Of a DNA stretch of 64,000 bases, positions 31,001-62,460 are shown in pieces (position 1 is the stretch's first letter; every line of letters begins with the position of its first letter). The DNA is from Eledone cirrhosa (taxonomy: Eukaryota), in NCBI GenBank assembly GCA_964016885.1, contig OZ024741.1:412734001-412798000 (forward strand). The letters run 5' to 3'. Under the pieces are notes generated by a model. The model saw only the letters and a program-made list of their open reading frames with translations. It did no database searches and was not told where the DNA came from. The translations under genes were made by a program, and so were the position numbers.

Positions 31001-31318
31001 AGTGAGACCTGGGCATTGTGTGCAGAGGATATACGCACGCAGACTGGAGAGGAACGAAGCATGCATGCTCCGCTGGATGTGTAATAGTAATATACGTGAA
31101 CGGCAAAACATAAACAAACTAAGGGAGAAATTAGGAATAAGAGGGATCAGATGCTGTTTACTCGAGAGAAGACTACGTTGGTACGGTCACGTGATGCGCA
31201 TGAAAGACGACAGCTGTATAAAAAGTGCAGGGCGATAAAAATAGACGGTAGTCACGGAGTAGGCAGACCCAGAAAAACCTGGGACGACTTGCTAAATTCC
31301 GACCTCACACACTTACAT
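28100..31318 (+). mobile_element. Near full-length decayed RTE-clade LINE (AP endonuclease, RT, PHD finger), 3' end lost
   Basis: APE motifs GTMNVGTL, CIQETRW, SAYAPQ, AGDLNGH, SQVDYIL, SQH; RT motifs [40 protein letters not shown]; multiple stops and frameshifts. ATG at 28215; the 5' boundary is approximate. Confidence 0.93.
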
Positions 31319-31479
31319 CAATAGTAATAATAGTAATAGCACTAATATAAATAGTAACCCTAATATCAATAGTAATAATAGTAATAGCACTAGTGAAAGC
31401 AATAACGCTAGGAGCGACTACCCCCATCACCAAAATGCAATACCTAGCACCCAGACTTCTACACAACATAATAACCAAA

Positions 31480-31900
31480 ATAATTGTAACTGTAGATCTA
31501 ATAGAACCTGCCCTTTAGATAAAAACTGCTTAATGAAGGACATCATATACTCATGCACCGTCAGAACTAGCAACTCTTCTGAAACCTATATAGGCTCTAC
31601 TTCGAACTGCTTCAAAACCAGATATAATTCACACCTCCATTCTTTCAAAAACCACAGTCTAGCCAACTCCATTTCACTATCTAGCTACATACACTATCTA
31701 AAAACTAAAAATAGATCTTATACACTTCAATGGGAAATGATAGGTAAGGCGGCATCGTACAAACCACCTAATAAATTCTGTAACCTCTGTCTACTAGAGA
31801 CCCATACTATAATCTTCTCAAACCATAACCTCCTTAATAAAAAAAATCGGAAGTGCTTGCGTCGTGCCAGCACCGCTTCCGCACTCCTTCCAAAACTTTA
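31480..31900 (+). pseudogene. GIY-YIG endonuclease C-terminal fragment of a 5'-truncated PLE
   Basis: CNCR..CPL..C..DIIY..ETYIGSTSNCFKTRYNSH..CNLCLLE..LLN; clearly homologous to 49870-50363. Confidence 0.8.
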
Positions 31901-33395
31901 AACCCAATATATAACAATGTCAGACTTGAACCCATCATCACCACTCCTAACACCACACCTCAAGGGCACACCTTACACCACAACTCCACACTCTCTGATC
32001 CACCCTATCTCGACACAAATCATTCCATCTATCTATAACATTATACCCTAGAAATATCCCCATAAACAACTACTTTCAATTACTTATAATTATATAGTGA
32101 TACAATACAGTCTATATAAACTTTAAATACTAGATACGGCAATGAATTATTTAGGCATTTGTAATTAAATGTATGGAGTGATAACATTGGATATATATAA
32201 GATTAATTTATTAACATAAGAGATCTGTCTAACTTATATGTAGGGTGCTGCAATGAATTATGTATGAATTATATATGAATTATATATGCAAGTATAACTT
32301 GATGGATAGATTAATGACATTGTAAATGAGGGATGTATTTGTCTGCCCTAGAGATGTATTTTGTTTTGCCATGCAAACAGCCATACGCTGCTCCATAACT
32401 TGCCAGGGGTTATGTAGACAAAATTCTAATAGGTCCCCTGATATGTTCTAAGAGTAGACAGCATTTACAGTGAACTTTGATATAAAGGTATGGCACTTTG
32501 TATGGAATATTCAATTGTAGCACTATATAATAGGGAGTAATCAACTTAATATAGATACTTTAAGTACATCATGATAGAGTAGACTGTATTTAAAATTGGA
32601 AACTAGATATAAATGTATAACCGTCTATATAAGGGACTCAATTGAGGCGCCTGATAATGTATGTTAGAACAATGAATTTAGTTCTGAGATTCGGCTAGTT
32701 ACCTCCCCTTACGCATTAACTCCCCATAATTACACACATACTTCCGGGTAATAAACCGCTGTAAATTCTCGCAGCAGAATCAACCTATTCTATAAACTTG
32801 GATTAAATAACACTGAGCCTCAATACGCTAAAATAATTTATTTTAATGCACCAAACATTCAATACGGATTCATCGTTACTTATGTGATGGATGTAGAAAC
32901 TATAGCTTACTTTTTCTGAATGTGAAAATGATGGTGGAGACGAAAATCATAACTTTCTTTTGCTTCTTCTTTTTCTTTTTATTTTTCTGCACACATACTT
33001 TATTGTTCTATACAAAAAACACCTTACCACTACAACCACCATAATAATCTTACTTACCCGCTTAAAGTGCTTGCATTACGTGTAACACCCTGCCACACAA
33101 TAATAGTATAAAAATGAGACACACTTGCATGCTCCACGTGTAACTAACGCATACACTACCTACTAGACCTGACTATCAAACTATCCTCTTGCATTATCTG
33201 TGTTATCTGCCGAATGTATTTTAATTTTGATTTTGATTTTAATTTTAATTTTGATTTTGATTTTGATTTTGAATTGCTGTACAAAAATAGTATAGTATAA
33301 TATATGCCACTCCACTGTACATCAATATATATATATGTATCTGTATGTCTCTTGCGTTGGAAAGGAGGTCAATTATGTGTACAAACATTGAAAAA

Positions 33396-34306: not shown

Positions 34307-36894
34307 AACCCCAAACACACAACTACATACAAACCCAATACTCAACACCAGAACCAGATACAACCACTGCCATAACACCAAGAACAATTACCGGAGACAA
34401 AATCAAAGACACATGAATACTGAACGAAACAACAGAAGAACAAGACCCCCATACAGCAACGACCACGCAAGAGTCTATCGCCCAACCAGTTACCGGCATG
34501 AAGTTCCGGCGGGCCAAAGGTTTCACCACAACAGAAACACCCCTATCCCAAATGGCACCCATTTTTTAGGACTAGGGGCCTCGCACCAAATGAAAGAAAA
34601 AAAGAAAAAAGCACCACCTTTCAAGTGGCACCTGACGAGAAAGAACCAATCGAACCAAAAATAATCAATATATCAGCCAAGAAATTAACACAACCAGAAA
34701 TACAACTGTTAGAAAATGGACTGAAGTTCACTCCCACTCCGAAAGCAGATACAGCCGATGTTATAAAAGACACAGAAGAAAACTGTCTAAAATTACGCTT
34801 AGGAGAATTCTTCCAGGGTGTACAATACGAGGAAGAATCACTGGTGAAAAACAAAAAAAGAACTTCACGCCCCCGCTAAATAGAGATAAATACCTGGAGG
34901 AGTACATAACCTGCCTTCGCCGATCAGCACGTACAAATACGGCCGAGACGAAACACAAACGCAACATCCCTACAGACCAACTACTAGCATTGAACAAGCT
35001 ACAAAGGGATTCCTCAATAATAATAAAAGAAGCGGACAAAGGTGGAGCAATCGTCATCATGGACATAAACCACTACAAAGATATGGTTCTAGCAAACTTG
35101 AATGACGAAAACTTCTACAGGAAAATCACTAAAAACGAAGAAAGGAAATCGAGGAACCAAATAGGCAAACTAACAACAAAGTACCAAAACAACCTAACAC
35201 CAAAAGAAGTAGATTACCTAATCAACTTCTAAATGAAAACCAGAAATTTCTATGGATTACCAAAAATTCACAAATCCATAGAAATTCAAAACAACATAAA
35301 AGGGAAAAATACATCATATACCGAAGCACCAAAACCGACTGACTTAAAATTACGCCCCATTATTGCTGGCCCAGCCTCAAGCACACAACGTCTAAGCAAC
35401 CTATTAGACATCATACTCAAACCCCTATGTAAAAAAGTTCCAAGCTACATCAGAGATGATATGGAATTCCTTAACTATATCCCCCAAAAAGTACACCAGG
35501 ATACAATCCTAGTCAGTTTTGATGTAATAAGCCTGTACACTAACATCCCACACGACCTAGGGATTGAAGCTGTGGACTTCTGGATTACAAAACACTCAAG
35601 TCACATTTCAGAAAGATTCCACAAAGAATTCATCTTGGAAGGACTTAAATTAGTATTGGAAAACAACCACTTCCTCTTTGACAACGAACTTTATCTACAA
35701 ATAAAAGGAACAGCCATGGGTACCAAAGTGGCCCCTACATATGCAACGTTCGTTATGGGTCACTTAGAGGCAAAATTATATTCCCAACTACAGATAACAT
35801 TCAGTCACGACTTGGCCTTCTACATTAATAAAAACTGGAAACGTTACCTAGATGACTGCTTCATCTTCTGGAACAGAAGCCAAACAGACCTACAAAAATT
35901 TTATTCGATCTTAAACAGGCTTCATGAAGCTATACAATTCACTATGGAATGTAACGAAAAGGAACTGCCCTTTCTAGATATCCTCATCATTAAAGAAGGG
36001 GAAAATATCATAACGGACCTATTTTGCAAACCCACTGACACACACCAATACTTAAATTTCCGGTCAGCACACCCCTCACATACGAAAAGGAACATTCCCT
36101 TCAACATGGCAAGGCGCATCTGCACTATAGCAACACACCCCGTACTACAAGAAAAAAGATTATGTGACCTGAAAATATTCCTTAAAAAACAAGAATACCC
36201 GATGAAACTCATCAACACAGCCATCTCCAAGGCTAAGAACATCCCAATAACAACACTGAGAAAACCAAACCCACAACATAAAAAAGAAAACCCTGCTATC
36301 CCTTTTGTCATCACTCACAACCCAGGGAACGTCAACATTGTGAAAACTGCTAAGCAGTATCTCCCGATTCTACAGCAATCTACCAAACTGAATGCACTCT
36401 TAAAAAACACACAGATAATGTATAGCAGACGCCAAGCACCCAACCTTAAAAAACTAATTACCAAGGCAAAATATACGACCAACATGGAATCAATGCAAGT
36501 GATGAAATGCGGGGACCCTAGATGTGGAACCTGTGAACTCATCGAAGAGGGCAAACAGTTGTCCTTCAAAAACCATGATAATTTCAAGGTCAATGCAAAC
36601 ATGAACTGCAAAACGAAAAACCTAATATATTGTGCAACATGTCCACAGTGTAAAGAGTATTACATTGGGGAAACCGGAACGGGACTACATGATAGAGTCC
36701 GGGTACATAAACAACAAATTAAAGACCCCACAGTCAGAAATACCACATGTAGCGCACACTTTGCATCATGCGGGAAGGGAAAATTCACAATCTTCCCTTT
36801 CTTCAAGATATGGTCGGATAACGAACATTTCCGCAGATATAAAGAAGAATTCTTCATTGAAAAACTGAAACCACTACTGAACACGAAAAAATGA
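34307..36894 (+). mobile_element. 5'-truncated Penelope-like element (Neptune-type architecture): ORF1 tail, RT, Zn-finger linker, GIY-YIG
   Basis: IINIS, GLKFTPTP, IKEADKG, FYGLPKIHK, RPII, SFDVISLYTNIP, GTAMGT, RYLDDCF, PFLD, KCGDPRCGTC, NLIY..YYIGET..R...H, E..I....P.LN; one frameshift near 34855 and a stop at 35230. Confidence 0.93.
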
Positions 36895-39544: not shown

Positions 39545-39678
39545 AAAAAGGGATGAAATCGAAAATGCAACTGAAGTCTTATTTTTTTAAAAAATATATA
39601 TATTCTCAACAAAACAACAACTCACTGAACCAGGACATCTTAAATGAACTCAAATAGATTTCCTCTAAACTCTCAATT

Positions 39679-40794
39679 TTGACCAACAAAGTGGACCAAA
39701 TACACATCTATAAAAAAGGACCCCACGAAGAAACAGAAAATACCCAAGAGACGAATATTACTCCAGTATTAACTAAGCTAATCGAAACCATTGAAACAGC
39801 AATGCTCCAAAAGCTTGAACAACCGTTAGAACCCAATCTACGAGATGTCCACTCAGTGAAAAACACCCTAATCAACATATGGACTCAAAAGCTCACAGCC
39901 CGCAAATTCGCCCTTTGGAATCTCCTAAAAAATAATGGCAAGGCAGACATATATGAAAAGTGGCTAAACTCTACCCCAATCATCCTCCCCAAAAAACTCC
40001 AAATAAAACCCATCCCGAATGAACCAGAAAACCAACAAAGACTTAGGGAAAAGATGGCATTGGAAAAATTTAAAACAGAAATAGAACTGTTGCGATTAAG
40101 AGCCAACTCCAACGAAGAAAAATTCAAGTCACTCGACCAACAGATGGACACAGAAATCTCAAAGCACTCTGAAGGCCTACTCTACAAAAAAACCCTAAAA
40201 CTTTGGAAAGAAAACTGTGAGGATGAAGAACTCACATCCCTCCAGCGATGGGAAAAAAACGCCACCTGGTTCAACAACTACGAAATGGACTTCAAAAATG
40301 AACAACATACAGGTAACCCATTTTTAAAACAAACTAAAACTCACACACCACATGCACAACAAATAACAAAAAAAGTAACAAAACGTCCAACATACCCCCA
40401 GCAAAACTATAACGATAATCCCAGAAACCATAGACAAAACTATAACCCTACTAACAAAAACCAAAGATCCCCGAACACAAGGCAGGACCTGATCCGCAGA
40501 TCACAACCCACACAAAACCTATTCCAAAACCGTAGACCCCTGCCCATACAGAGCCTGTTCCAAAACCATAGATCCCAACCCACACAAAGGAACCAAATCT
40601 ACAACCCGGACTATCAACAAACCGAACCTCAATACGTCCGAAACTTCTATACAAGACCACACAACAACAGGGGAAATACCATTAGATATAATAATACCAA
40701 TGAAAAAACATTCCAGAAAAATCATTTTTTAGACCAAGGCTACAGGATTCACGACACCCGGTGGCACAAACCGATTTTGAAAAACCGAAAATAA
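39679..40794 (+). CDS. PLE ORF1-like protein: charged helical/coiled-coil region plus Q/N/R/P-rich tail; probably 5'-truncated
   Basis: 371-codon non-repetitive ORF; the frame continues upstream past a single TAG at 39655 to the inversion junction; overlaps the RT ORF. Confidence 0.7.
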   Translation: MTNKVDQIHIYKKGPHEETENTQETNITPVLTKLIETIETAMLQKLEQPLEPNLRDVHSVKNTLINIWTQKLTARKFALWNLLKNNGKADIYEKWLNSTPIILPKKLQIKPIPNEPENQQRLREKMALEKFKTEIELLRLRANSNEEKFKSLDQQMDTEISKHSEGLLYKKTLKLWKENCEDEELTSLQRWEKNATWFNNYEMDFKNEQHTGNPFLKQTKTHTPHAQQITKKVTKRPTYPQQNYNDNPRNHRQNYNPTNKNQRSPNTRQDLIRRSQPTQNLFQNRRPLPIQSLFQNHRSQPTQRNQIYNPDYQQTEPQYVRNFYTRPHNNRGNTIRYNNTNEKTFQKNHFLDQGYRIHDTRWHKPILKNRK

Positions 40795-43031
40795 TTAACA
40801 TTTCAAATACAAACCTCTCAGCCCAACAAGTAAAAATTCTCTCCAAAGGTCTGAAATTCATACCAACACCACAATATCCTAACCCCAACGAGATAAATGA
40901 CGATATCTCACACTTCTGTAGAAAATTACGTCTCACAGAGGAATTCTTTGACAAGGAGAATAACGACGAATCAATTGTACGGAATAAAAGCAGCTACAAC
41001 CCAACAAAAGGTAGAAACAGAGTTCTGGACAAATTTTGTGACCACATAGCTACCTTCCCATACCATGAACTACCGCAACCTAAACCCAAACCCAACACAA
41101 GTCGAAGGGAATGGGAGATTATCCATGAACTAAAAAACAACCCGGACATTGTAATTAAGGAAGCGGACAAGGGAAGTACTGTTGTCATTATGGAGGCTGA
41201 AAAATATAAAAATTCTATGTTCTCTCTCTTACAAAATGCTAATTACTATGAAAGAGTAAAAAACTACCAGCAATCAAAAATAATGACCAAATTAAACACA
41301 CTGATTTATCGATACCAGGAAGACCTAACTAAAAAGGAACGCGATTATTTAACAAATTTTGAATACAAAACCAGCAACCTTTACGGACTTCCGAAGATCC
41401 ACAAATGTAAAATAATCAACGATGCCTGTAAACAATCCACCTCAGCCTGCGTGAACACACAATACCCCACAGACCTTAAATTAAGACCAATTGTAGCGGG
41501 CCCACAATGTGAAACACACAGATTGAGCAACTTTATAGACATACTACTGAAACCAATACTGAAACACATACCAAGCCTTGTAAGAGACGATCTGGACCTC
41601 TTAAACCACCTCCCCAAACATGTCAACAACGACACTATTATTGTGTCTTTCGATGTAGTGAATCTCTACACAACGATCCCACACCAATACGGACTAGAAG
41701 CAATAGGATTCTGGCTAGAGAAATATCCCAATGAGATACCTGACAGAATAGAAAAAAGCTTCATCACCGAGGGATTAAAATTCATCCTACAGAACAACTT
41801 TTTTGATTTCGATGGCAATACTTACAAGCAAATATCGGGGACTGCGATGGGCACAAAAGCCGCTCCAACTTATGCCAACTTAGTCATGGCATACTTAGAA
41901 GTCCAGATATATGAACAGTCCAAATCAAAATACGGATTGAACTTCCACAAATATTTATCAGAGAATTGGAAACGCTACTTGGATGATTGCCTCATTCTTT
42001 GGTCCCACACACTCGACCAACTGAAGGATTTCAAAAACTTAATAAACGGCATCAATAACCACATCCAATTCACAATGGAATACAGCCAAGATCAACTCCC
42101 ATTTCTGGACATCTTAATCACAAAAAAAGACACAAATATCGAAACTGACATACACGACAAACCAACAGATTCCAAACAATATCTGCTATTCACCTCCAAC
42201 CATCCAAAGCACACGAAGACGAACATTCCTTTTAACCTAGCAAGAAGAATTTGCACAATTGTCTCCAATTATGAAACGCGAAATAAAAGACTTCAAGAAT
42301 TAAAGGAAATTCAACTTGAGAGAGAGTACCCACTATTACTAATAAATAATGAAATAGAAAGGGCTAAAGCAATAGGCATTGATGAATTACGGAAACAGAA
42401 ACAAATTCAAGGTACGTCCAATATTCTATCATATATCTCAACACACAACCCAAGAAATGCGGAAGCTTACAACACTATTCACAATAACATCCCACTACTA
42501 AAACAAAACCCAAGAATGAAAAAAGCCCTTGAAACACACAAAATAATCAAAAGCAAAAGACAACCAAAATCACTGAAAACATTACTCACCAATGCCAAAT
42601 TACCTACCACAAACCCACAACCAAGTATCAAAAAATGTGGTCGCTCTAATTGTGGAACCTGCACTCACCTCATTGAAGGCAACACGTATACATTTAAATC
42701 AGGACAAAATTTTACTGTAAAAAATCACTTCACTTGCTCATCAAAAAATCTAGTTTATGCCATTAAATGTAAAGGATGCAATGAAGATTATATAGGACAA
42801 ACTAAACTCACACTCAGAAACAGAATGACAGTTCATCGCCAACAATTACGAGATCCAACCACGAGACAGATACCACTAAGTGCACATCTAGACATTTGCG
42901 CAAGTAATAAGACACCCAAATTCCAAGTCTTCCCATTTTACCTTTGCGCTAACAATACAACAGAACAAATGCGAATAAATAAGGAAAATATGTTTATTCA
43001 AAAATATAGACCAACATTAAATAAGGTTTAA
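40704..43031 (+). CDS. PLE reverse transcriptase, Zn-finger linker and GIY-YIG endonuclease (frame open from 40704, no ATG near its start)
   Basis: IINISN, GLKFIPTP, IKEADKG, YGLPKIHK, SFDVVNLYTTIP, GTAMGT, RYLDDC, PFLD, KCGRSNCGTC, NLVY..DYIGQT..R...H; no internal stops. Confidence 0.93.
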   Translation, partial: KNIPEKSFFRPRLQDSRHPVAQTDFEKPKIINISNTNLSAQQVKILSKGLKFIPTPQYPNPNEINDDISHFCRKLRLTEEFFDKENNDESIVRNKSSYNPTKGRNRVLDKFCDHIATFPYHELPQPKPKPNTSRREWEIIHELKNNPDIVIKEADKGSTVVIMEAEKYKNSMFSLLQNANYYERVKNYQQSKIMTKLNTLIYRYQEDLTKKERDYLTNFEYKTSNLYGLPKIHKCKIINDACKQSTSACVNTQYPTDLKLRPIVAGPQCETHRLSNFIDILLKPILKHIPSLVRDDLDLLNHLPKHVNNDTIIVSFDVVNLYTTIPHQYGLEAIGFWLEKYPNEIPDRIEKSFITEGLKFILQNNFFDFDGNTYKQISGTAMGTKAAPTYANLVMAYLEVQIYEQSKSKYGLNFHKYLSENWKRYLDDCLILWSHTLDQLKDFKNLINGINNHIQFTMEYSQDQLPFLDILITKKDTNIETDIHDKPTDSKQYLLFTSNHPKHTKTNIPFNLARRICTIVSNYETRNKRLQELKEIQLEREYPLLLINNEIERAKAIGIDELRKQKQIQGTSNILSYISTHNPRNAEAYNTIHNNIPLLKQNPRMKKALETHKIIKSKRQPKSLKTLLTNAKLPTTNPQPSIKKCGRSNCGTCTHLIEGNTYTFKSGQNFTVKNHFTCSSKNLVYAIKCKGCNEDYIGQTKLTLRNRMTVHRQQLRDPTTRQIPLSAHLDICASNKTPKFQVFPFYLCANNTTEQMRINKENMFIQKYRPTLNKV

Positions 43032-46512: not shown

Positions 46513-48802
46513 GCAATAATAATAATAACGACAACAACAATAATAATATACATATTCATATATATATACACACACACGCACGCACATAAGCATATCTACA
46601 CACACACACACACACAAACACACGATAGCAACTAACAGTGCTGCGATCGAATGTGGCTTTTTAGCCCAGCCAATGATCCAAAATGTCTTGCACAGAGTCG
46701 GCAACCAAAACATTTACTGGGAATAGTCGGCTGTGGTTGGAGTTCGTGTACTTTTGCATGTCGCTTGAGTCCTCCTGCTGATTTACATTCTCTACCACAT
46801 GTTTGGCAAGCATGATGAGTAGCATCTCCAACAGCAGCCTGGTAGTCAACCACTGGTCTTACTTTATGACTGCGAAGATGACTTTCGAGTCCAGCTTTGC
46901 TTAGGCAGAGTCTCGCACAGACGCTGCATGTCAGAAACATAGGAGGACCCTCGCCGTCTGGAAGTGCAACAGCAATACCCTTCCTCACGTCCCGCTTTAC
47001 TTTCTCGTGTGCGATTCGAGATGCCTCAAAGGCAACTTTTCCCTCATATACAGTCTTTCTCCACCCATTACGATCAGCAGCAATATTTTCCCATGTATCA
47101 GCAGAGATGTTAGCGTCTTTCAGAGAGGCCTTCAAGGAATCCTTATACCTCTTTTTTGGTTTATGTGGCGGTCGTTTTCCTTTAACCAACTCTCCATAGA
47201 AGAGTTGTTTTGGTATTCTAGAATCCTTCATCCTGGCAAGGTGACCACTCCAACGGAGTCGCTGCTTAAGCACAAGAGCTTCTATACTGTCACACATAGA
47301 GCTTTCCAAAATCTCGACATCACTGATGTGGTCCCTCCAGCGAACGCCATGTATCCGTCTGAGACACATCTGATGGAAACGCTCCAATTGCTTAAGGTGG
47401 CGTCGATATGCGACCCAGGTCTCGCAGGCATAAAGAAGACAAGAGAGTACACATGCCCTGTACACCTTTACCTTTGTCCTCCTGCATATGTCTCGCCGAC
47501 CCCAGAGTCGCCTTTCTAGCTTTCCGAAAGCATCACTTGCTTTCCTAATCCTAAGTGAGATTTCACTGTCAAGGTTGCCGTATCGATTGACAGTGCTTCC
47601 CAGGTAGACAAACTGATCAACCACTCCAAGTCGTTTGCCATACACATAGATGTTTGGTTCAGTGTACTGCCTACCAGGTGCAGGTTGGTACATGACGACG
47701 GTTTTCTTGAGACTGACAGTCAAACCCAGGGCAGTGCAAGCGTCAGAAAATACATTCAAAATGTGCTGCATATCACTCTCTGTGTGCGCTACAAGATCGC
47801 AATCATCTGCATACAAGAGGTCTCTTATGACTGATGTAAATACTTTTGTCTTCGCAGCAAAGCGCCTGATGTTAAATATGCTGCCTGAGGTTCGATATCG
47901 GATGTAAACACCATGCTCGCAATTCCTGAATGCAACACAGAAAACCATTGCAAAGTATATGGCAAACAGGGTCGGTGCTGGAATATCCCCCTGTTTCACT
48001 CCATTTTTTACTGAGATAGGCTCCGACATGTTACCTCCGACATTAACCCAAGCCTTCATGTCGTCATGGAAAGACCTAACTAAAGCAAGGAACTTATCAG
48101 GGCAACCAAGTTTCTGGAGAACCTTCCATAATGCATCTCTGTTGACAGTATCGAAAGCCTTTGTCAGATCGACAAAAACCTGATACAGATCCAAGCCCTG
48201 TTCAATGCACTTCTCCTGGAGCTGTCCAGCTGAGAAGATCATATCAGTAGTGCCGCGTCCAACACGAAAACCAGATTGACTTTCAGGAAGGACACAATCT
48301 GCAATGTGTGTCAGCAGACGGTCCAGAAGCACCCTACATAAAACTTTCCCCACGACAGAAAGCAATGATATACCTCTGTAGTTCCCACAATCATTCCTGT
48401 TACCCTTTCCCTTGTACAAGACCACCATTACTGCATCTCTCCAGTCCTCAGGCACGGATTCATTAGCCCATATCCTTCCAAACAGAGAGTGAAGATGTTG
48501 CAGGAGTCTCTCACCACCATATTGTAGGAGCTCAGCATGTATGCCATCCATACCTGGAGATCTTCCACTGTTCAGCTTCGAAATAGCCACTGCAACCTCC
48601 ACAAGTGTCGGAGGCTCTGCGAGAGCTACTTTCACAGGACTTTCCGGAATGAGATTGAGGAAATCTTCACTGACGACAGACGGCTGATTCAAAAGATCAT
48701 CAAAGTGCTCCCGCCACCTTCGTAGAATTCCCTGTGAGTCACGAAGAAGTTCTTTGCCATCCCTGCTGCGAATCGGTGTCACCAGAGAAGAAGACGGTCC
48801 AT
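46410..48802 (-). mobile_element. 5'-truncated RTE (BovB-like) LINE with uninterrupted RT and three C-terminal C2H2 zinc fingers
   Basis: [54 protein letters not shown]; three CxxC..GL..H...H fingers; stop at 46632; 3' terminus TGGCCATACTCGATAACGAG..GCAGCCATCAT. Confidence 0.95.
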
Positions 48803-48804
48803 AA

Positions 48805-48845
<41 letters not shown>

Positions 48846-49077
48846 TATATACATATATATACATATATATATACATATATATACATATATATACATATAT
48901 ATATATACATATACATATATATACATATATATATATATATACATATATATACATATATATATATACATATATATACATATATACATACATATATATACAT
49001 ATATATATATACATATATATACATATATACATACATATATATACATATATATAGATATATATATATACATATATATT

Positions 49078-49852: not shown

Positions 49853-49869
49853 TTAGAATTCTAAAAAAT

Positions 49870-50363
49870 TAAATAAGCCAACCACCTCCGAAACCAATCC
49901 CCGGACTGGGGCTCTATGTAATTGCCTAAATAAGGAAGCATGCCCACTTGAAAACAAATGCCTCACAAATGATATCATATACAAATGCGATGTCATCTCA
50001 GGCACCGAGGATTGCAAAAAAACTTACATCGGCATGACCTCCAACAACTTTAAGACCCGTTGGTATGCCCATACCCACTCCTTCAGAAGACCGGATAAAT
50101 CAAAACAGACAACACTCGCCTCCTACGTTTGGGACCTCAAAAGGAACTCCACCCCCTTCACGCTTAAATGGAAAATACTCCGGAAAGCGCGCTCTTACAA
50201 CGGAGGACACAAGGGCTGCGACCTTTGTATTTCAGAGAGCTACGAAATTTTATTCGCCAAGGGCCCGCTACTGAACAAACTCTCTGAACACTGCCCGAAC
50301 TGCATGCACAAGAACTTTGCAACTTTCAAACACTTTAAGCCAGTGTTAAAGCCCGATGGCTAA
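49870..50363 (+). pseudogene. GIY-YIG endonuclease C-terminal fragment of a 5'-truncated PLE
   Basis: CNCLNKEACPLENKC..DIIY..KTYIGMTSNNFKTRW..H..SF..CDLCISE..LLN..E..C.H; preceded by an inverted hammerhead-bearing piece. Confidence 0.85.
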
Positions 50364-52810: not shown

Positions 52811-54580
52811 TCATCATCATCATCATCATCATCAGGTTTAGCGTCCGTGTTCCACGCTTGCATGGGTTTGGACGGGGGTTTTCCCACTTGAGGCAAGAGT
52901 GGTTGTCTTGCTCGCATAGGACTGTCTGGCGGGTTTTCTACAGTTGGATGCCCTTCCTAACACCAACCACATTTACAGTGTGGGGCTGGGAGGTTTTTAC
53001 CGTGTTGCCTACACGGCCACATTACAGCGTGGACTGTCTGGCGGGTTTTCTACAGCTGGATGCCCTTCCTAACACCAACCACATTTACAGTGTAGGGCTG
53101 GGAGGTTTTTACCGTGTTGCCTACACGGCCACATTTACAGCGTGGACTGTGTGTTTTTTGTCGTGACACCTACACGATCTCATTTGTTTCGGCCTGGATG
53201 TTGTGGGACCAACATAACTTTACATTGAAAGGGGCGGTGTGGGTGGGGTGGAGGTGGTGGGACGGGGGTGTGTTTTGATAGAGGTGCCTACTGACTGTAG
53301 TAGGTTTTTACTTTGTATTTAGGTAAGGCGGGTCTTCTCTATTACTGAGTACCGCCAAAGGTCTCGGTCCAGTGACATTGTCTTGGAGAGGTGTAAGCGT
53401 GTGAGGTCGGAATTTATCAGCTCGTCCCATGTTTTTCTGGGTCTGCCTACTCCATGGCTACCGTCTATCTTTATTGCCCTGCACTTTGTTATACAGCTGT
53501 CGTCTTTCATGCGCATCACGTGACCGTACCAACGTAGCCTTCTCTCGAGTAAACAACATCTGATCCCTCTTATTTCTAATTTTTTCCTTAGTTCGTTTAT
53601 GCTTTGCCGTTCACGTATATTACTATTGCACATCCAGCGGAGCATGCAAGCTTCGTTCCTCTCTAGTCTGCGTATATCCTCTGCACACAATGCCCAGGTC
53701 TCACTGCCATGCAGCATTGCTGTTCGTATGCAGGCATCGTATAACCTGCCTTTTATTTTTAGGGAGAACCCTCTAGCGGCTAATAGTGGTATAAGCTCTC
53801 TGAACTTTTTCCTTTCAGAGCACCCTCCCCCACTGCTGATTTTGTCACCCAGATAACGGAAGCTGTCCACTATTTCTATAGAACCCTCTGCGCAGTTGAA
53901 GGAGCTAGTATTTTGAGGGCACTTGCTGCTACTTATTGCACCAGAGCACCGGCCACATGTAAAATCTATGTTCTTAGTTAGCTTACCTGTGATCCCACTA
54001 CATCTTTTATGCACCCATACTTTGCATTTGGGACATAAAATGGAGTTTCTACCTACGCCTTTCCTACACACTGAGCATGGCCATTTCCCCGATGGGACCG
54101 CCGCCTTATTTTCTTTCCTACAAACTAGAACTTTAGTCTTAGCCAGGTTAATTTTAAGGCCTTTTGATTCTAGGCCGTGCTTCCACGTTTGGAATTTCTT
54201 CTCTAGTTCGGTCATTGATTCAGCTATGAGCGTTAGATCATCTGCGTATAGGAGTATCCATGGGCAGCCGGTCTTGAACTCCTCTGTTATAGCCTGAAGG
54301 GCAATAATAAATAGTAGGGGGCTAAGTACAGAGCCCTGATGGACACCAACTTTTACGCTAAACTCTTCACTATATTCGTTGTTAATTCTAACCTTACTGA
54401 CTGTTTCTTTATACATGGCTTGTATAGCTCTCACAAGCCATTCGTCGACACCTAGTTTTCTAAGAGCCCACCAGATAATGGAACGGGGGACTCTGTCGAA
54501 GGCTTTCTCCAAGTCGACAAAAGCTAAGTATAGGGGTTTACTTTTAGCTAGGTACTTCTCCTGTAGTTGTCGTACAATGA
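52811..54580 (-). mobile_element. 5'-truncated RTE LINE (PHD family) with 3'UTR and (TGA)n tail
   Basis: RT C-terminal half nearly identical to the 28-31 kb copy; stop at 53319; the 3'UTR has a ~113-bp tandem duplication and ends GTGGAACACGGACGCTAAACC(TGA)n. Confidence 0.95.
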
Positions 54581-54796
54581 AATATATAAGTATATATATA
54601 TAAATATATAAGTATATATATATATATATATATGTATATGTATATATATATATATGTGTGTGTGTATATATGTGTGTATGTAATTGTGTATATATGTATG
54701 TATGTGTATGTGTGTGTGTATATGTGTATGTATATATGTGTGTGTGTGTGTGTATATGTATATATATATATATGTGTATATATATATATATGTATA

Positions 54797-54865
<69 letters not shown>

Positions 54866-54869
<4 letters not shown>

Positions 54870-55063
54870 CGAAGGAAATGTGGTAAGGAACCAGGTGGAC
54901 CATAACGCACCAAAGTACTCGATACTTGAGGTAGTAGAGTGGGTAATAGGAACCAGTAAGACCCCGACAGCTGAGCTCAAGCCGTTTCGACGGCTAATTC
55001 TATGTATGTGTGTATTAGCCGTCGAAACGGCTTGAGCTCAGCTGTCTGGGTCTTACTGGTTCC

Positions 55064-57752: not shown

Positions 57753-58777
57753 TCATCATCATCATCATCATCATTTTACGTCCGCTTTTCCCTGCTTGCA
57801 AGGGTGGGATGGGTCTTATTCAGCACAGCATCTCTCCACTTGTCACGGTCCCTCGTCATCTCCACCGTGAGCTTCAATGATCTGAGGTCTGTTCTCACCA
57901 CCTCCGCCCATGTTTTTCGTGGTCTACCTCTACCACGTCTTCCTTCAACTGGCATTTCCTGGCACTTCTTCACCCATCGGTCATCCTCCATGCGCATCAC
58001 ATGTCCATACACCTCAGTCTCCTCTCCCGTACACTACATTCTATCCCTCTCAGACACAGTTTCTCTCTCAACACATTTATGCTGGGTCGTTCACGCACAT
58101 TTACACTGCACATCCAACGGAGCATGCTTGCCTCATTTCTCTCCAGCTGTCGCATATCTTCTGCGGTAGCTGCCCATGTCTCACTACCATGCAGCATCGC
58201 GCTCCTCACACAGGCATCATACAACCGGCCTTTCGTACGCAGGGAGAAACCCTTCTTCGTCAACAGAGGAAGCAGCTCCCTAAACTTCTTCCAACCCGTC
58301 CTTATTCTAGATACTATGGCCTCGGAACACCCTCCTCCCATGCTAATCTGATCTCCTAGGTACCGGAAGCTATCCACCACTTCTATAGCGCCCTCTCGCA
58401 TTTGAAAAATGTGTCTATCAGTGCGACTTCTACTGTCTAATTTCCCTGTACATCTACTGCATACATAGTTCTCCCTACCTGTTAGTTTGCCTGCTATCCC
58501 GCTACATCTCTTGTGTACCCAGGACCTACATTGTGTGCATTTTATAGAATTTATGCCAGTTCCTTTTCTGCATATCGAACATGGCCATTTCCCTGACGGA
58601 ATCAGGGTTTTGTCCTCTTTTCTACTCATCAACACTTTTGTCTTAGCTAGATTTACTCTCAGTCCTCTTGCTTCCAACTGCTGTTTCCATAGCCGGAATT
58701 TATTCTCTAGCTCCTCTACTGATTCTGCCATAAGAGCCAGATCGTCAGCATAGAGAAGTTCCCATGGACAGCCAGTC
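57753..58777 (-). mobile_element. 5'-truncated RTE LINE, second PHD-bearing subfamily, (TGA)n tail
   Basis: [52 protein letters not shown]; one frameshift near 58010. Confidence 0.93.
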
Positions 58778-60146
<1,369 letters not shown>

Positions 60147-62460
60147 CCAGCCTTAACTTCTACGGGGCTGACTGGAAGAAGATTAAGAGTGAAATCCGGA
60201 AGCAAACATGGAGTGCAAACATCGCCACACAAGACACTAACACACAATTTCAACACTTCATGACAACGATACACACCATATGCAAAAAGTGTGTCCCGGA
60301 GAAAGAGGCAAACAGACACAAAAATCTTATTCCCAGAGATAGGAAAATCCTTATGAGGCGTAGAACTAAACTCTCAAACCAGTTGAATAGTCAACAAAAC
60401 CAAAACAAGAAGGAATCCTATTTGAAACGTGCACTACTTGACACCGAGATTGCACTCAAGCTTTCACATGAGAATGAGAGGGCAAGGAAAGAGAACAGGG
60501 CCATAGAAAACATTAAAACAAACCCTAAGGCCTTCTTTAAATTTGCAAAAGAAACTGCCTCAGTACACTGCAAGATTGGACCACTCTTCCACACGGACGG
60601 TTCATTAACCGAAAATCCCCAAGAGATATGTGAAATACTGAACGAACAGTACAAAAGTGTCTTCACATGTCCACTGAGGCACATGCAAATAACGAAGCCA
60701 GAGGAGTTCTTTGATGCCACAACACTACATCAAGAAATGGCAACCATCAACCACATAGACATAACGGAGGAGGATGTGGTGTACGCCATTGATGAAATTA
60801 GAACAGACTCGGCTGCTGGACCTGATGGATTCCCAGCAGTTCTCCTAAAAATATGTAAGCGGGCCTTAGCAACTCCACTGAAGATGCTCTTTAGAAGCTC
60901 CTTGGCTAGCGGTGTACTACCCAGGGAGCTGAAAGAAGGCACAATATGCCCTATCCATAAAGGAGGTAGTAGAGCGGAGGCCAAGAACTATAGGCCAGTC
61001 TCCCTGACGTCGCATATCAGTAAGGTCATGGAGCGAGTCATCAGAAAGAAACTAATCACTTTCCTCGAAGAAAATGACCGCCTGACTAGCACGCAACATG
61101 GCTTCCGCCCAGGAAGAAGCTGCCTTACACAGCTGCTACATCACTACGACTGGGTACTGAGACAACTACTAGACAGCTCACATGTAGACGTGATATATCT
61201 TGACTTTGCGAAGGCCTTTGACAAGGTCGACCACGGAATGATATGTCACAAACTACACGGACTCGGCATAACTGGAAAAGTAGGTGAGTGGCTGCATGGC
61301 TTCCTAAGGGACAGAAGCCAGGCAGTCGCAGCAAATGGGGCCCTCTCGAGGGAAACACCGATAACAAGTGGGGTGCCTCAGGGGACAGTCCTGGGACCAC
61401 TACTGTTTTTGGTGGCTCTCTCGGACATGCCCTCTGTGGTGCATGCAACAACATCCCTCACTAGCTATGCTGATGACACTAAGGTAGCACAGGCAATCAA
61501 AAACCCGGCTGACGCTGCCCTCTTACAGCAGGATCTGGATGCCATATACAGATGGGCGGAAGAAAACAACATGCAGTTTAATGCTGGCAAATTCCAAGCC
61601 CTACAATACAAACCTGCAAACACAAACACAAATATAGCGGAACACAGCTACACAGGACCAGGAGGGACCGATATCCCCGTGTCAAAATCGATACGAGACC
61701 TGGGCATAGACATGAGCGATGATGCATCTTTTTCTTCACACATCATGAAGGTGGCGACAGCATGTAGACGATTCGCTGGCTGGATCTTGAGGACTTTCCT
61801 TACAAGAGATCGAGACACCATGTTGACACTGTGGAGGACTTTTGTCCTAAGCCGCCTGGACTACTGCTCCCAGCTGTGGTCACCCCATAGTGTCAAACTA
61901 ACCACAGAGCTTGAAGCAATCCAGCGAAGCTACACCAAGAGGATTGCCAAGATGAGGGAGACAAGCTACTGGGAGAGGCTGAAGGAACTGAACCTCTACT
62001 CCTTGGAGCGAAGACGGGAGAGATACGCAGTGATCTACATGTAGAAAATCCTGGAGGGACTAGCACCAAACTTTGGCATTGGGATCTGAACCAACCGTCG
62101 AACAGGACGTCACTGTGTGGTGCCAAAGGTCCCGTCTTCCACATCTAGAATAAGGAGCAGGTATTGCAATAGCCTGGGATTCAAGGGCCCTCAACTCTTC
62201 AACAGGCTGCCGAGGCATCTGCGAGACTTGCATGACGTGGAGGTGGATGTCTTTAAGAAACATCTCGACACCTTGTTATCCAGGATCCCGGATGAGCCCA
62301 CAGCAAGACACGAGGGAAACCTAAGGGCAGCAGCAACAAACTCCCTCCTACACCAGTGGCCAACCTATACAGGCTGGAGATAAGATGTGTAGCAACAAGG
62401 GCGGTGCCCCAGCATGGCCTCAGCCGGATGGCTGAAACAGGTAAAAGAGTAAAAGAGTAA
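60147..62460 (+). mobile_element. 5'-truncated CR1-group LINE (RT and 3' tail)
   Basis: [67 protein letters not shown]; premature TAG at 62042; tail GGCGGTGCCCCAGCATGGCC..TGAAACAG(GTAAAAGA)n. Confidence 0.92.

Follow-up and report, generated by a model that had tools for sequence, protein, structure and literature searches.

Background

[quoted passage not shown] Here we analyze EN+ PLEs that share these features in Eledone cirrhosa (Eukaryota), starting from a stretch of 64,000 nucleotides (nt), referred to as the window (GenBank assembly GCA_964016885.1, contig OZ024741.1, forward-strand positions 412,734,001 to 412,798,000). In contrast to the canonical arrangement, a predicted helical ORF1 of 404 amino acids (aa) overlaps the RT-EN frame (ORF2) in the −1 frame. 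Judged from sequence comparison, this junction is very probably a programmed −1 frameshift, with a slippery heptamer in the overlap of the two frames. We call the elements Neptune-type for their domain architecture, which is not a clade assignment by placement in an RT tree.

The single-ORF feature is not strict, as a Neptune element with two non-overlapping ORFs has been published from killifish. The legend to Fig. 1 of PMC8557442 allows for an ORF1 that a pseudoknot-bearing frameshift sets apart, the clade not being named in that text, and the EN-minus Athena and Terminon PLEs likewise have two ORFs, with coiled-coil ORFs there (PMC6431247). The latter are telomeric and lack an endonuclease, whereas the elements studied here possess one and show no evident pseudoknot or stem (nested folds only, as in all RNA folding reported below). 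The mark in that legend is said to concern Athena, and Athena and Terminon reportedly have a frameshifted ORF1. A literature search, with subscription papers and Repbase notes outside its scope, found no paper that treats a slippery site of EN+ PLEs; the parts covered of PMC3846280, PMC5408684, PMC6431247, PMC11167929, and 10.1101/2025.05.22.655539 describe none, and a term search of the PMC8557442 supplement did not return "slippery". An earlier description for Neptune-type elements is possible.

Among known frameshifting systems, HIV-1 gag-pol has the identical heptamer (U UUU UUA) and likewise fuses a structural ORF to an RT (PMC5009743), but no conserved stimulatory stem lies 3′ of the site here. 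Of the canonical features of −1 frameshifting, the in-phase X XXY YYZ heptamer in an open −1 overlap is present, and no stable stem 5–9 nt downstream was found in nested folds. In Escherichia coli reporters, which likewise have no RNA structure and hold a slippery site upstream of a stop by one ribosome length, stalling of a ribosome at UGA increases −1 shifting by the trailing ribosome, with a peak at a 9-codon spacer (PMC6815119). Those reporters are synthetic and bacterial, whereas the present case is natural and eukaryotic, with ten codons between the A-site codon of the heptamer and a stop at codon 12 (counted from its Phe codon), a stop at codon 33 in family B, and a collision that is presumed. 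[quoted passage not shown]

The ORF1–ORF2 Junction in the Window

The window contains a copy of a young PLE family, family B, and an element of a second family, A (Table 1). The family B copy is flanked on both sides by (TA)n microsatellites, and its 3′ end as given is the ORF2 stop, not a mapped terminus. This copy is dead: relative to an intact sister copy and deep contigs, ORF2 is broken by two extra A in the run at 34853–34859 and by a stop at 35230–35232. In family B sister copies, ORF1 has the full 404 aa and ORF2 is unbroken over 776 aa. Domains were scored on the intact sister copy L032, not on the window copy, and PF00078 and PF01541 lie above cut-off there, giving an RT followed by a C-terminal GIY-YIG domain. 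A Zn-finger-like Cys linker between RT and EN (KCGDPRCGTC) and a CCHH motif (LIYCATCPQCKEYYIG, in which GIY and YIG enclose two Cys, with two later His) are conserved in all four aligned families. A structure model predicts long helices for residues 17–244 of family B ORF1 and then a disordered tail; ORF1 matched no Pfam family above cut-off and no PDB fold with E ≤ 0.001. No hammerhead ribozyme match was found at E ≤ 0.05 in four loci, whose termini are unmapped.

Table 1. Features of the family A and family B elements, numbered from the first nucleotide of the window.
Feature	Position	Strand	Remarks
Family B PLE copy	34307..36894	+	5′-truncated and decayed; young two-ORF, endonuclease-bearing family
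ORF1 remnant, family B	34308..34664	+	85 codons before the site and a 33-codon tail
Slippery heptamer T TTT TTA, family B	34562..34568	+	Encodes Phe-Leu in the ORF1 frame; putative −1 shift site
ORF2, family B	34562..36894	+	RT, Cys linker, GIY-YIG; −1 frame
A-rich tract, family B	34593..34610	+	KEKKKK at ORF1 codons 10–15 past the site; putative role
GTGGCAC, family B	34625..34631	+	Not a conserved signal
ORF1 stop TAA, family B	34662..34664	+	Codon 33 past the site
ORF1, family A	39658..40794	+	Homologous to family B ORF1
ORF2, family A	40704..43031	+	RT and GIY-YIG; −1 frame
Slippery heptamer, family A	40725..40731	+	Same heptamer, same phase; ORF1 stop at codon 22

The first ATG of family B ORF2 is codon 166, downstream of conserved motifs, so recoding would be needed. 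A sequence-only reading of the window had placed CAT TTT TTA G (CATTTTTTAG, 34560–34569) in the frame of the N/R/H-rich ORF upstream of the RT frame, with the −1 frame open from the heptamer into PKIINIS..GLKFTPTP. Coordinates and phase are as it gave them, and the −1 frame opens 20 codons earlier still. The family B ORF1 stop arises from ATA ATC, codons that belong to the −1-frame PKIIN motif. CATTTTTTAG has only one further match in the window, in family A at 40723–40732, and the shared heptamer and phase that had been reported for the two elements were recovered; 0.30 matches are expected, and 5 of 100 shuffles reach two.

The same reading had treated the two elements as independent, which they are not: their ORF1s are 37% identical over 155 aa (E 8e-31), and their RT-EN proteins are 43% identical (43–51% among families). 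Family B ORF1 is also homologous to the ORF1 of two further families (28–34%). Because the ORF1s of A and B are homologous, the site goes back to a shared ancestor and has persisted as the DNA around it diverged. The GTGGCAC noted downstream of both sites is indeed present (at 40761–40767 in family A), but not as a signal: it lies 56 nt (B) and 29 nt (A) past the heptamer, is missing from the other 19 of 21 junctions, and its sharing is at chance level, a shared 7-mer arising in 40% of 1000 shuffles (P = 0.40).

A search with the ORF2 N-terminus scored 150 matches, 30 of whose family B loci were retrieved; among these, T6AG stands 93 nt ahead of the PKIIN codon in 22, is shifted by 1–2 nt through small indels in five, and is missing from three. 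A deep contig over 34306–34929 has no listed difference at the site, and contigs of two runs, of unknown kind, contain a single low-depth, non-GT/AG skip; a search for RNA data sets containing the element listed none. The junction is a trait of the family, not an accident of one copy. An older family B subfamily has TAT TTT TTA G, with roughly equal spacing; CA is therefore not part of the signal. Three copies (L008, at G000:C3:109896112-109899315; L013; L025) have ORF1 and ORF2 joined in frame by a single additional A in the A-tract.

Conservation of the Heptamer Across Families and Relatives

Six families (A–F) were recognized in the genome, C and D by a pattern that requires T6AG, and E and F by protein searches free of that requirement. 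A metagenome scan gave 79 loci: 23 without the ORF2 N-terminus, two near an edge, 19 in a close group, and 35 in a distant group. Prokaryote-genome contigs held two related loci, one with a junction (L196), and the viral contigs searched held no relatives. The 26 close junctions thus comprise the 19 close-group loci, L196, and the six families, with close kin among the rows (L070/L073/L106, L074/L082, L057/L080/L059, and C/D). An in-phase X XXY YYZ heptamer lies in the short open stretch before IIN in 24 of the 26, against 10.6 in codon shuffles. Every T6A or T6G site is in phase (21/21); the sequence-only reading had named random phase in such a survey as its refutation. That condition is incomplete, because a splice acceptor would also hold phase to ORF2; the discriminating tests are ORF1 phase and the loss of AG, and both favour frameshifting.

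T6AG is read in 16 of the 26 junctions, and eight of the 24 heptamer junctions have either no AG at the homologous site or another heptamer. Family E has T TTT TTA followed by A instead of G, T TTT TTG occurs in L060, L065, L196, and L059, T TTA AAC in L081, and A AAA AAC in L071 and L075. The heptamers exchanged at the site are listed as shift-prone (PMC5009743). No ATG precedes IIN in the ORF2 frame in 23 of the 26 junctions. In family C (e.g., L042 and L166–L195), a C-run between the heptamer and PKIIN varies from ~7 to >20 bases, and its length puts ORF1 and ORF2 in one frame in some copies.

Two protein searches with an ORF1 alignment gave 1214 clusters at E ≤ 0.001, of which the best 150 were listed; the named matches among those listed are from oyster and octopus, and most are unnamed. 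From the 163 proteins obtained, 126 with a tail of at least 70 residues were kept and 37 dropped. Phe-Leu (FL) occurs within the last 45 aa in 96 of the 126 (mean of shuffles 5.9, maximum 16) and in the preceding 45 aa in five. The 92 homologues with a single tail FL were used for tests of neighbouring residues and of stops. Directly ahead of FL, K, E, Q, M, and W, none of which has a codon with T as its last base, do not occur (0/92, P = 9e-9); because these are excluded, it is the nucleotide heptamer, not the dipeptide alone, that is kept. After FL, the residue has codons starting with G in 66 of the 92 and a codon unable to begin with G in 26, so that no AG can stand there.

The overlap, its phase, its conservation over six families and distant relatives, and the exchange among known slippery heptamers are established. 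A phase fixed to both frames, together with heptamer exchange and loss of AG, argues for a programmed −1 frameshift. Support for a selected signal, as against a chance indel, reaches well past two copies; the signal is not the 10-mer CATTTTTTAG but the heptamer with its variants. Several points count against frameshifting. Two of the 26 junctions have no in-phase heptamer, the junction being replaced by flanking DNA in L087 and holding no canonical site in L116; an ATG precedes IIN in the ORF2 frame in three (families C and D, and L106); and 30 of the 126 ORF1 tails lack FL. The ORF1 search profile itself held the FL column, which may enrich FL among the matches, though not its position, and because of kinship among the homologues the binomial P values assume too much independence.

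Alternative Explanations

Were TTTTTTAG a 3′ splice acceptor joining an upstream exon to ORF2, the T6AG of 16 junctions and the G-starting codons after FL in most homologues would be expected, and in family E a CAG that keeps the ORF2 phase lies 6 nt further on; introns are possible in PLEs (PMC8557442, Fig. 1 legend). Yet several lineages retain a slippery heptamer with no AG at the homologous position, AG is excluded in 26 of 92 proteins, and an acceptor would fix neither ORF1 phase nor stop spacing, which makes splicing extremely unlikely. Separate synthesis of ORF2 from its own ATG or a near-cognate GTG (in GTGGC), by leaky scanning or reinitiation, is very unlikely too: GTG GCA (families A and B, and L075) or ATG GCC (C and D) does precede PKIIN in the ORF2 frame, and five of 35 more distant relatives have ATGA stop-start overlaps, but no ATG stands there in 23 of the 26 junctions, GTGGCAC does not exceed chance, and the heptamer would be left unexplained.

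That FL(G) is an ORF1 peptide motif and the −1 overlap incidental is scarcely credible. The tail does have residue preferences around FL (H before, G-Q-G after), but T must be possible as the base ahead of the Phe codon, LN and KN replace FL where other slippery heptamers occur, and ORF2 would have no start. Hardly more can be said for slippage of RNA polymerase or RT on the T6 run, with the frame corrected in RNA and not on the ribosome, to which genomic copies with T5, T7, or T8 might point: T6 is a short run, T TTA AAC is not a homopolymer, and neighbouring A and C runs are equally indel-prone. On the preferred reading, some ribosomes would slip back one base on the heptamer and make an ORF1-RT-EN fusion, giving a ratio like that of gag and gag-pol, with much ORF1 protein and little enzyme. 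If so, the one-ORF gene model of these abundant telomerase-related retrotransposons gives way to a gag/pol-like pair made in a set ratio, and in vitro work should employ the ORF1-RT-EN fusion.

Stop Spacing and a Possible Stimulus of Frameshifting

The stimulus would be a leading ribosome paused ~11 codons ahead rather than RNA structure, a part of the proposal with less support than the frameshift itself. For family B, the downstream stem had been described as much less clear, and its z-scores agree (+1.5 over 50 nt, −1.4 over 80 nt). Across 21 junctions, no conserved downstream stem was found (mean z −0.7); strong hairpins occur in few junctions only, e.g., L106. The older subfamily retains a small CCAC/GTGG hairpin that lies 45 nt past the site; it was rejected as too weak and too far for a classical stimulator.

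The ORF1 stop falls at codon 12 in 32 of the 92 homologues, and family F stops there as well. It never falls at codons 4–11 (0 in 712 codons, despite 40 Tyr, Trp, or Cys codons in that zone), and the stop rate at codons 13–20 is 0.064 per codon. Stop at codon 3 occurs in 3 of the 92, from one clade; a divergent clade in which ORF1 ends three codons past the site (FLx-stop) comprises L069, P0117, P0136, and P0153. On a quick version of the ORF1 tree, the stop-at-12 state is spread over the tree with 13 changes, at least six of them forced; it is therefore old and long kept, yet does not represent 32 independent events. The empty zone suggests that translation must reach codon 12 whatever stands there. 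Trp stands at codon 12 in families A and C (TGG) and in three relatives, and may be a lost stop. The stops at codons 21, 22, and 33 (families C, A, and B, respectively) are created by the IIN motif.

A leading ribosome held at codon 12 would park the next ribosome on the heptamer; disome footprints in mouse measure 59–60 and 62–63 nt (10.1101/710061). In roughly one third of relatives the pause would fall on the ORF1 stop, and in family B it would perhaps fall on the Lys-rich A-tract; a stop at codons 4–11 would end translation ahead of the pause and leave that zone empty. A nascent-peptide pause would also account for the empty zone, and nascent His-Phe-Leu in the exit tunnel possibly aids the pause. 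We put forward collision of ribosomes as the trigger tentatively, since it is drawn from sequence patterns and is the less probable outcome. Slightly more doubtful is the full proposal of a large EN+ PLE clade with structure-free −1 frameshifting by collision, the pause at codon 12 being due to termination (or, in family B, to the Lys-rich A-tract), possibly with help from nascent His-Phe-Leu. Our literature search on collision-driven frameshifting yielded bacterial reporter evidence only; if the collision model is true, the stop-spacing pattern is a natural, directly testable case in eukaryotes, and family B, without the 12-codon stop, is a useful exception that tests whether another pause can substitute.

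Codons 10–15 of family B (AAA GAA AAA AAG AAA AAA) contain a second in-phase heptamer, A AAA AAG, at 34598–34604, and their KEKKKK tract is a candidate pause site or nuclear localisation signal. Family B belongs to a supported clade of seven rows (99) without any stop at 12, which has 3–6 K/R in codons 8–13 against a mean of 1.3 in 49 others. From this one clade, the Lys-rich A-tract may be taken to pause the leading ribosome, a localisation signal being as likely. In another clade without the 12-codon stop (P0056, P0057, P0069, P0072, P0082, P0089, and P0098), GG or GGG stands at codons 10–12, possibly a third kind of pause or a G-rich RNA signal. Pro/Gly amounts to 0.25 at codons 10–12 versus 0.14, an excess noted post hoc.

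Against collision stand the stops beyond codon 12 in 57 of the 92 homologues and in family B, which a stop-driven queue does not explain. The basic patch is confined to one clade and may be a localisation signal, and general polybasic compensation was rejected, K/R being 0.27 at codons 10–12 versus 0.24 at 5–9 across long tails. An early hint of a 10–11-codon periodicity of later stops was likewise dropped (Rayleigh p 0.05–0.4 for periods 10–11); period 9, one of five tried, gave p 0.008, but out of phase with codon 12. The null result for a conserved stem bears on the frameshift reading as a whole in the same direction.

Distant Relatives and Other Content of the Window

In the distant group (~30% identity to ORF2), L090, L094, L096, L117, and L123 have an upstream ORF of 323–715 codons whose end overlaps the first ORF2 ATG as ATGA, and in seven further loci the upstream ORF ends 5–26 nt past that ATG, in another frame. 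This arrangement suggests termination-reinitiation in place of frameshifting in a distant sister group. Six of the 35 distant loci (L093, L100, L114, L119, L121, and L129) have long −1 overlaps of 70–116 codons, with G GAT TTT/A, T TTA AAC, or G GGT TTT in phase close to where the overlap begins.

Elsewhere in the window, two GIY-YIG-like fragments of another Penelope-like type lie at 31296–31901 and 49857–50363, with weak Pfam matches below cut-off. A degenerate tandem repeat of ~23 kb (1–23200), with a unit near 30 bases, has long open frames on both strands. Translations alone point to ORFs of other RT retrotransposons at 46632–49076, 53319–55037, 57997–58776, and 60400–62044.
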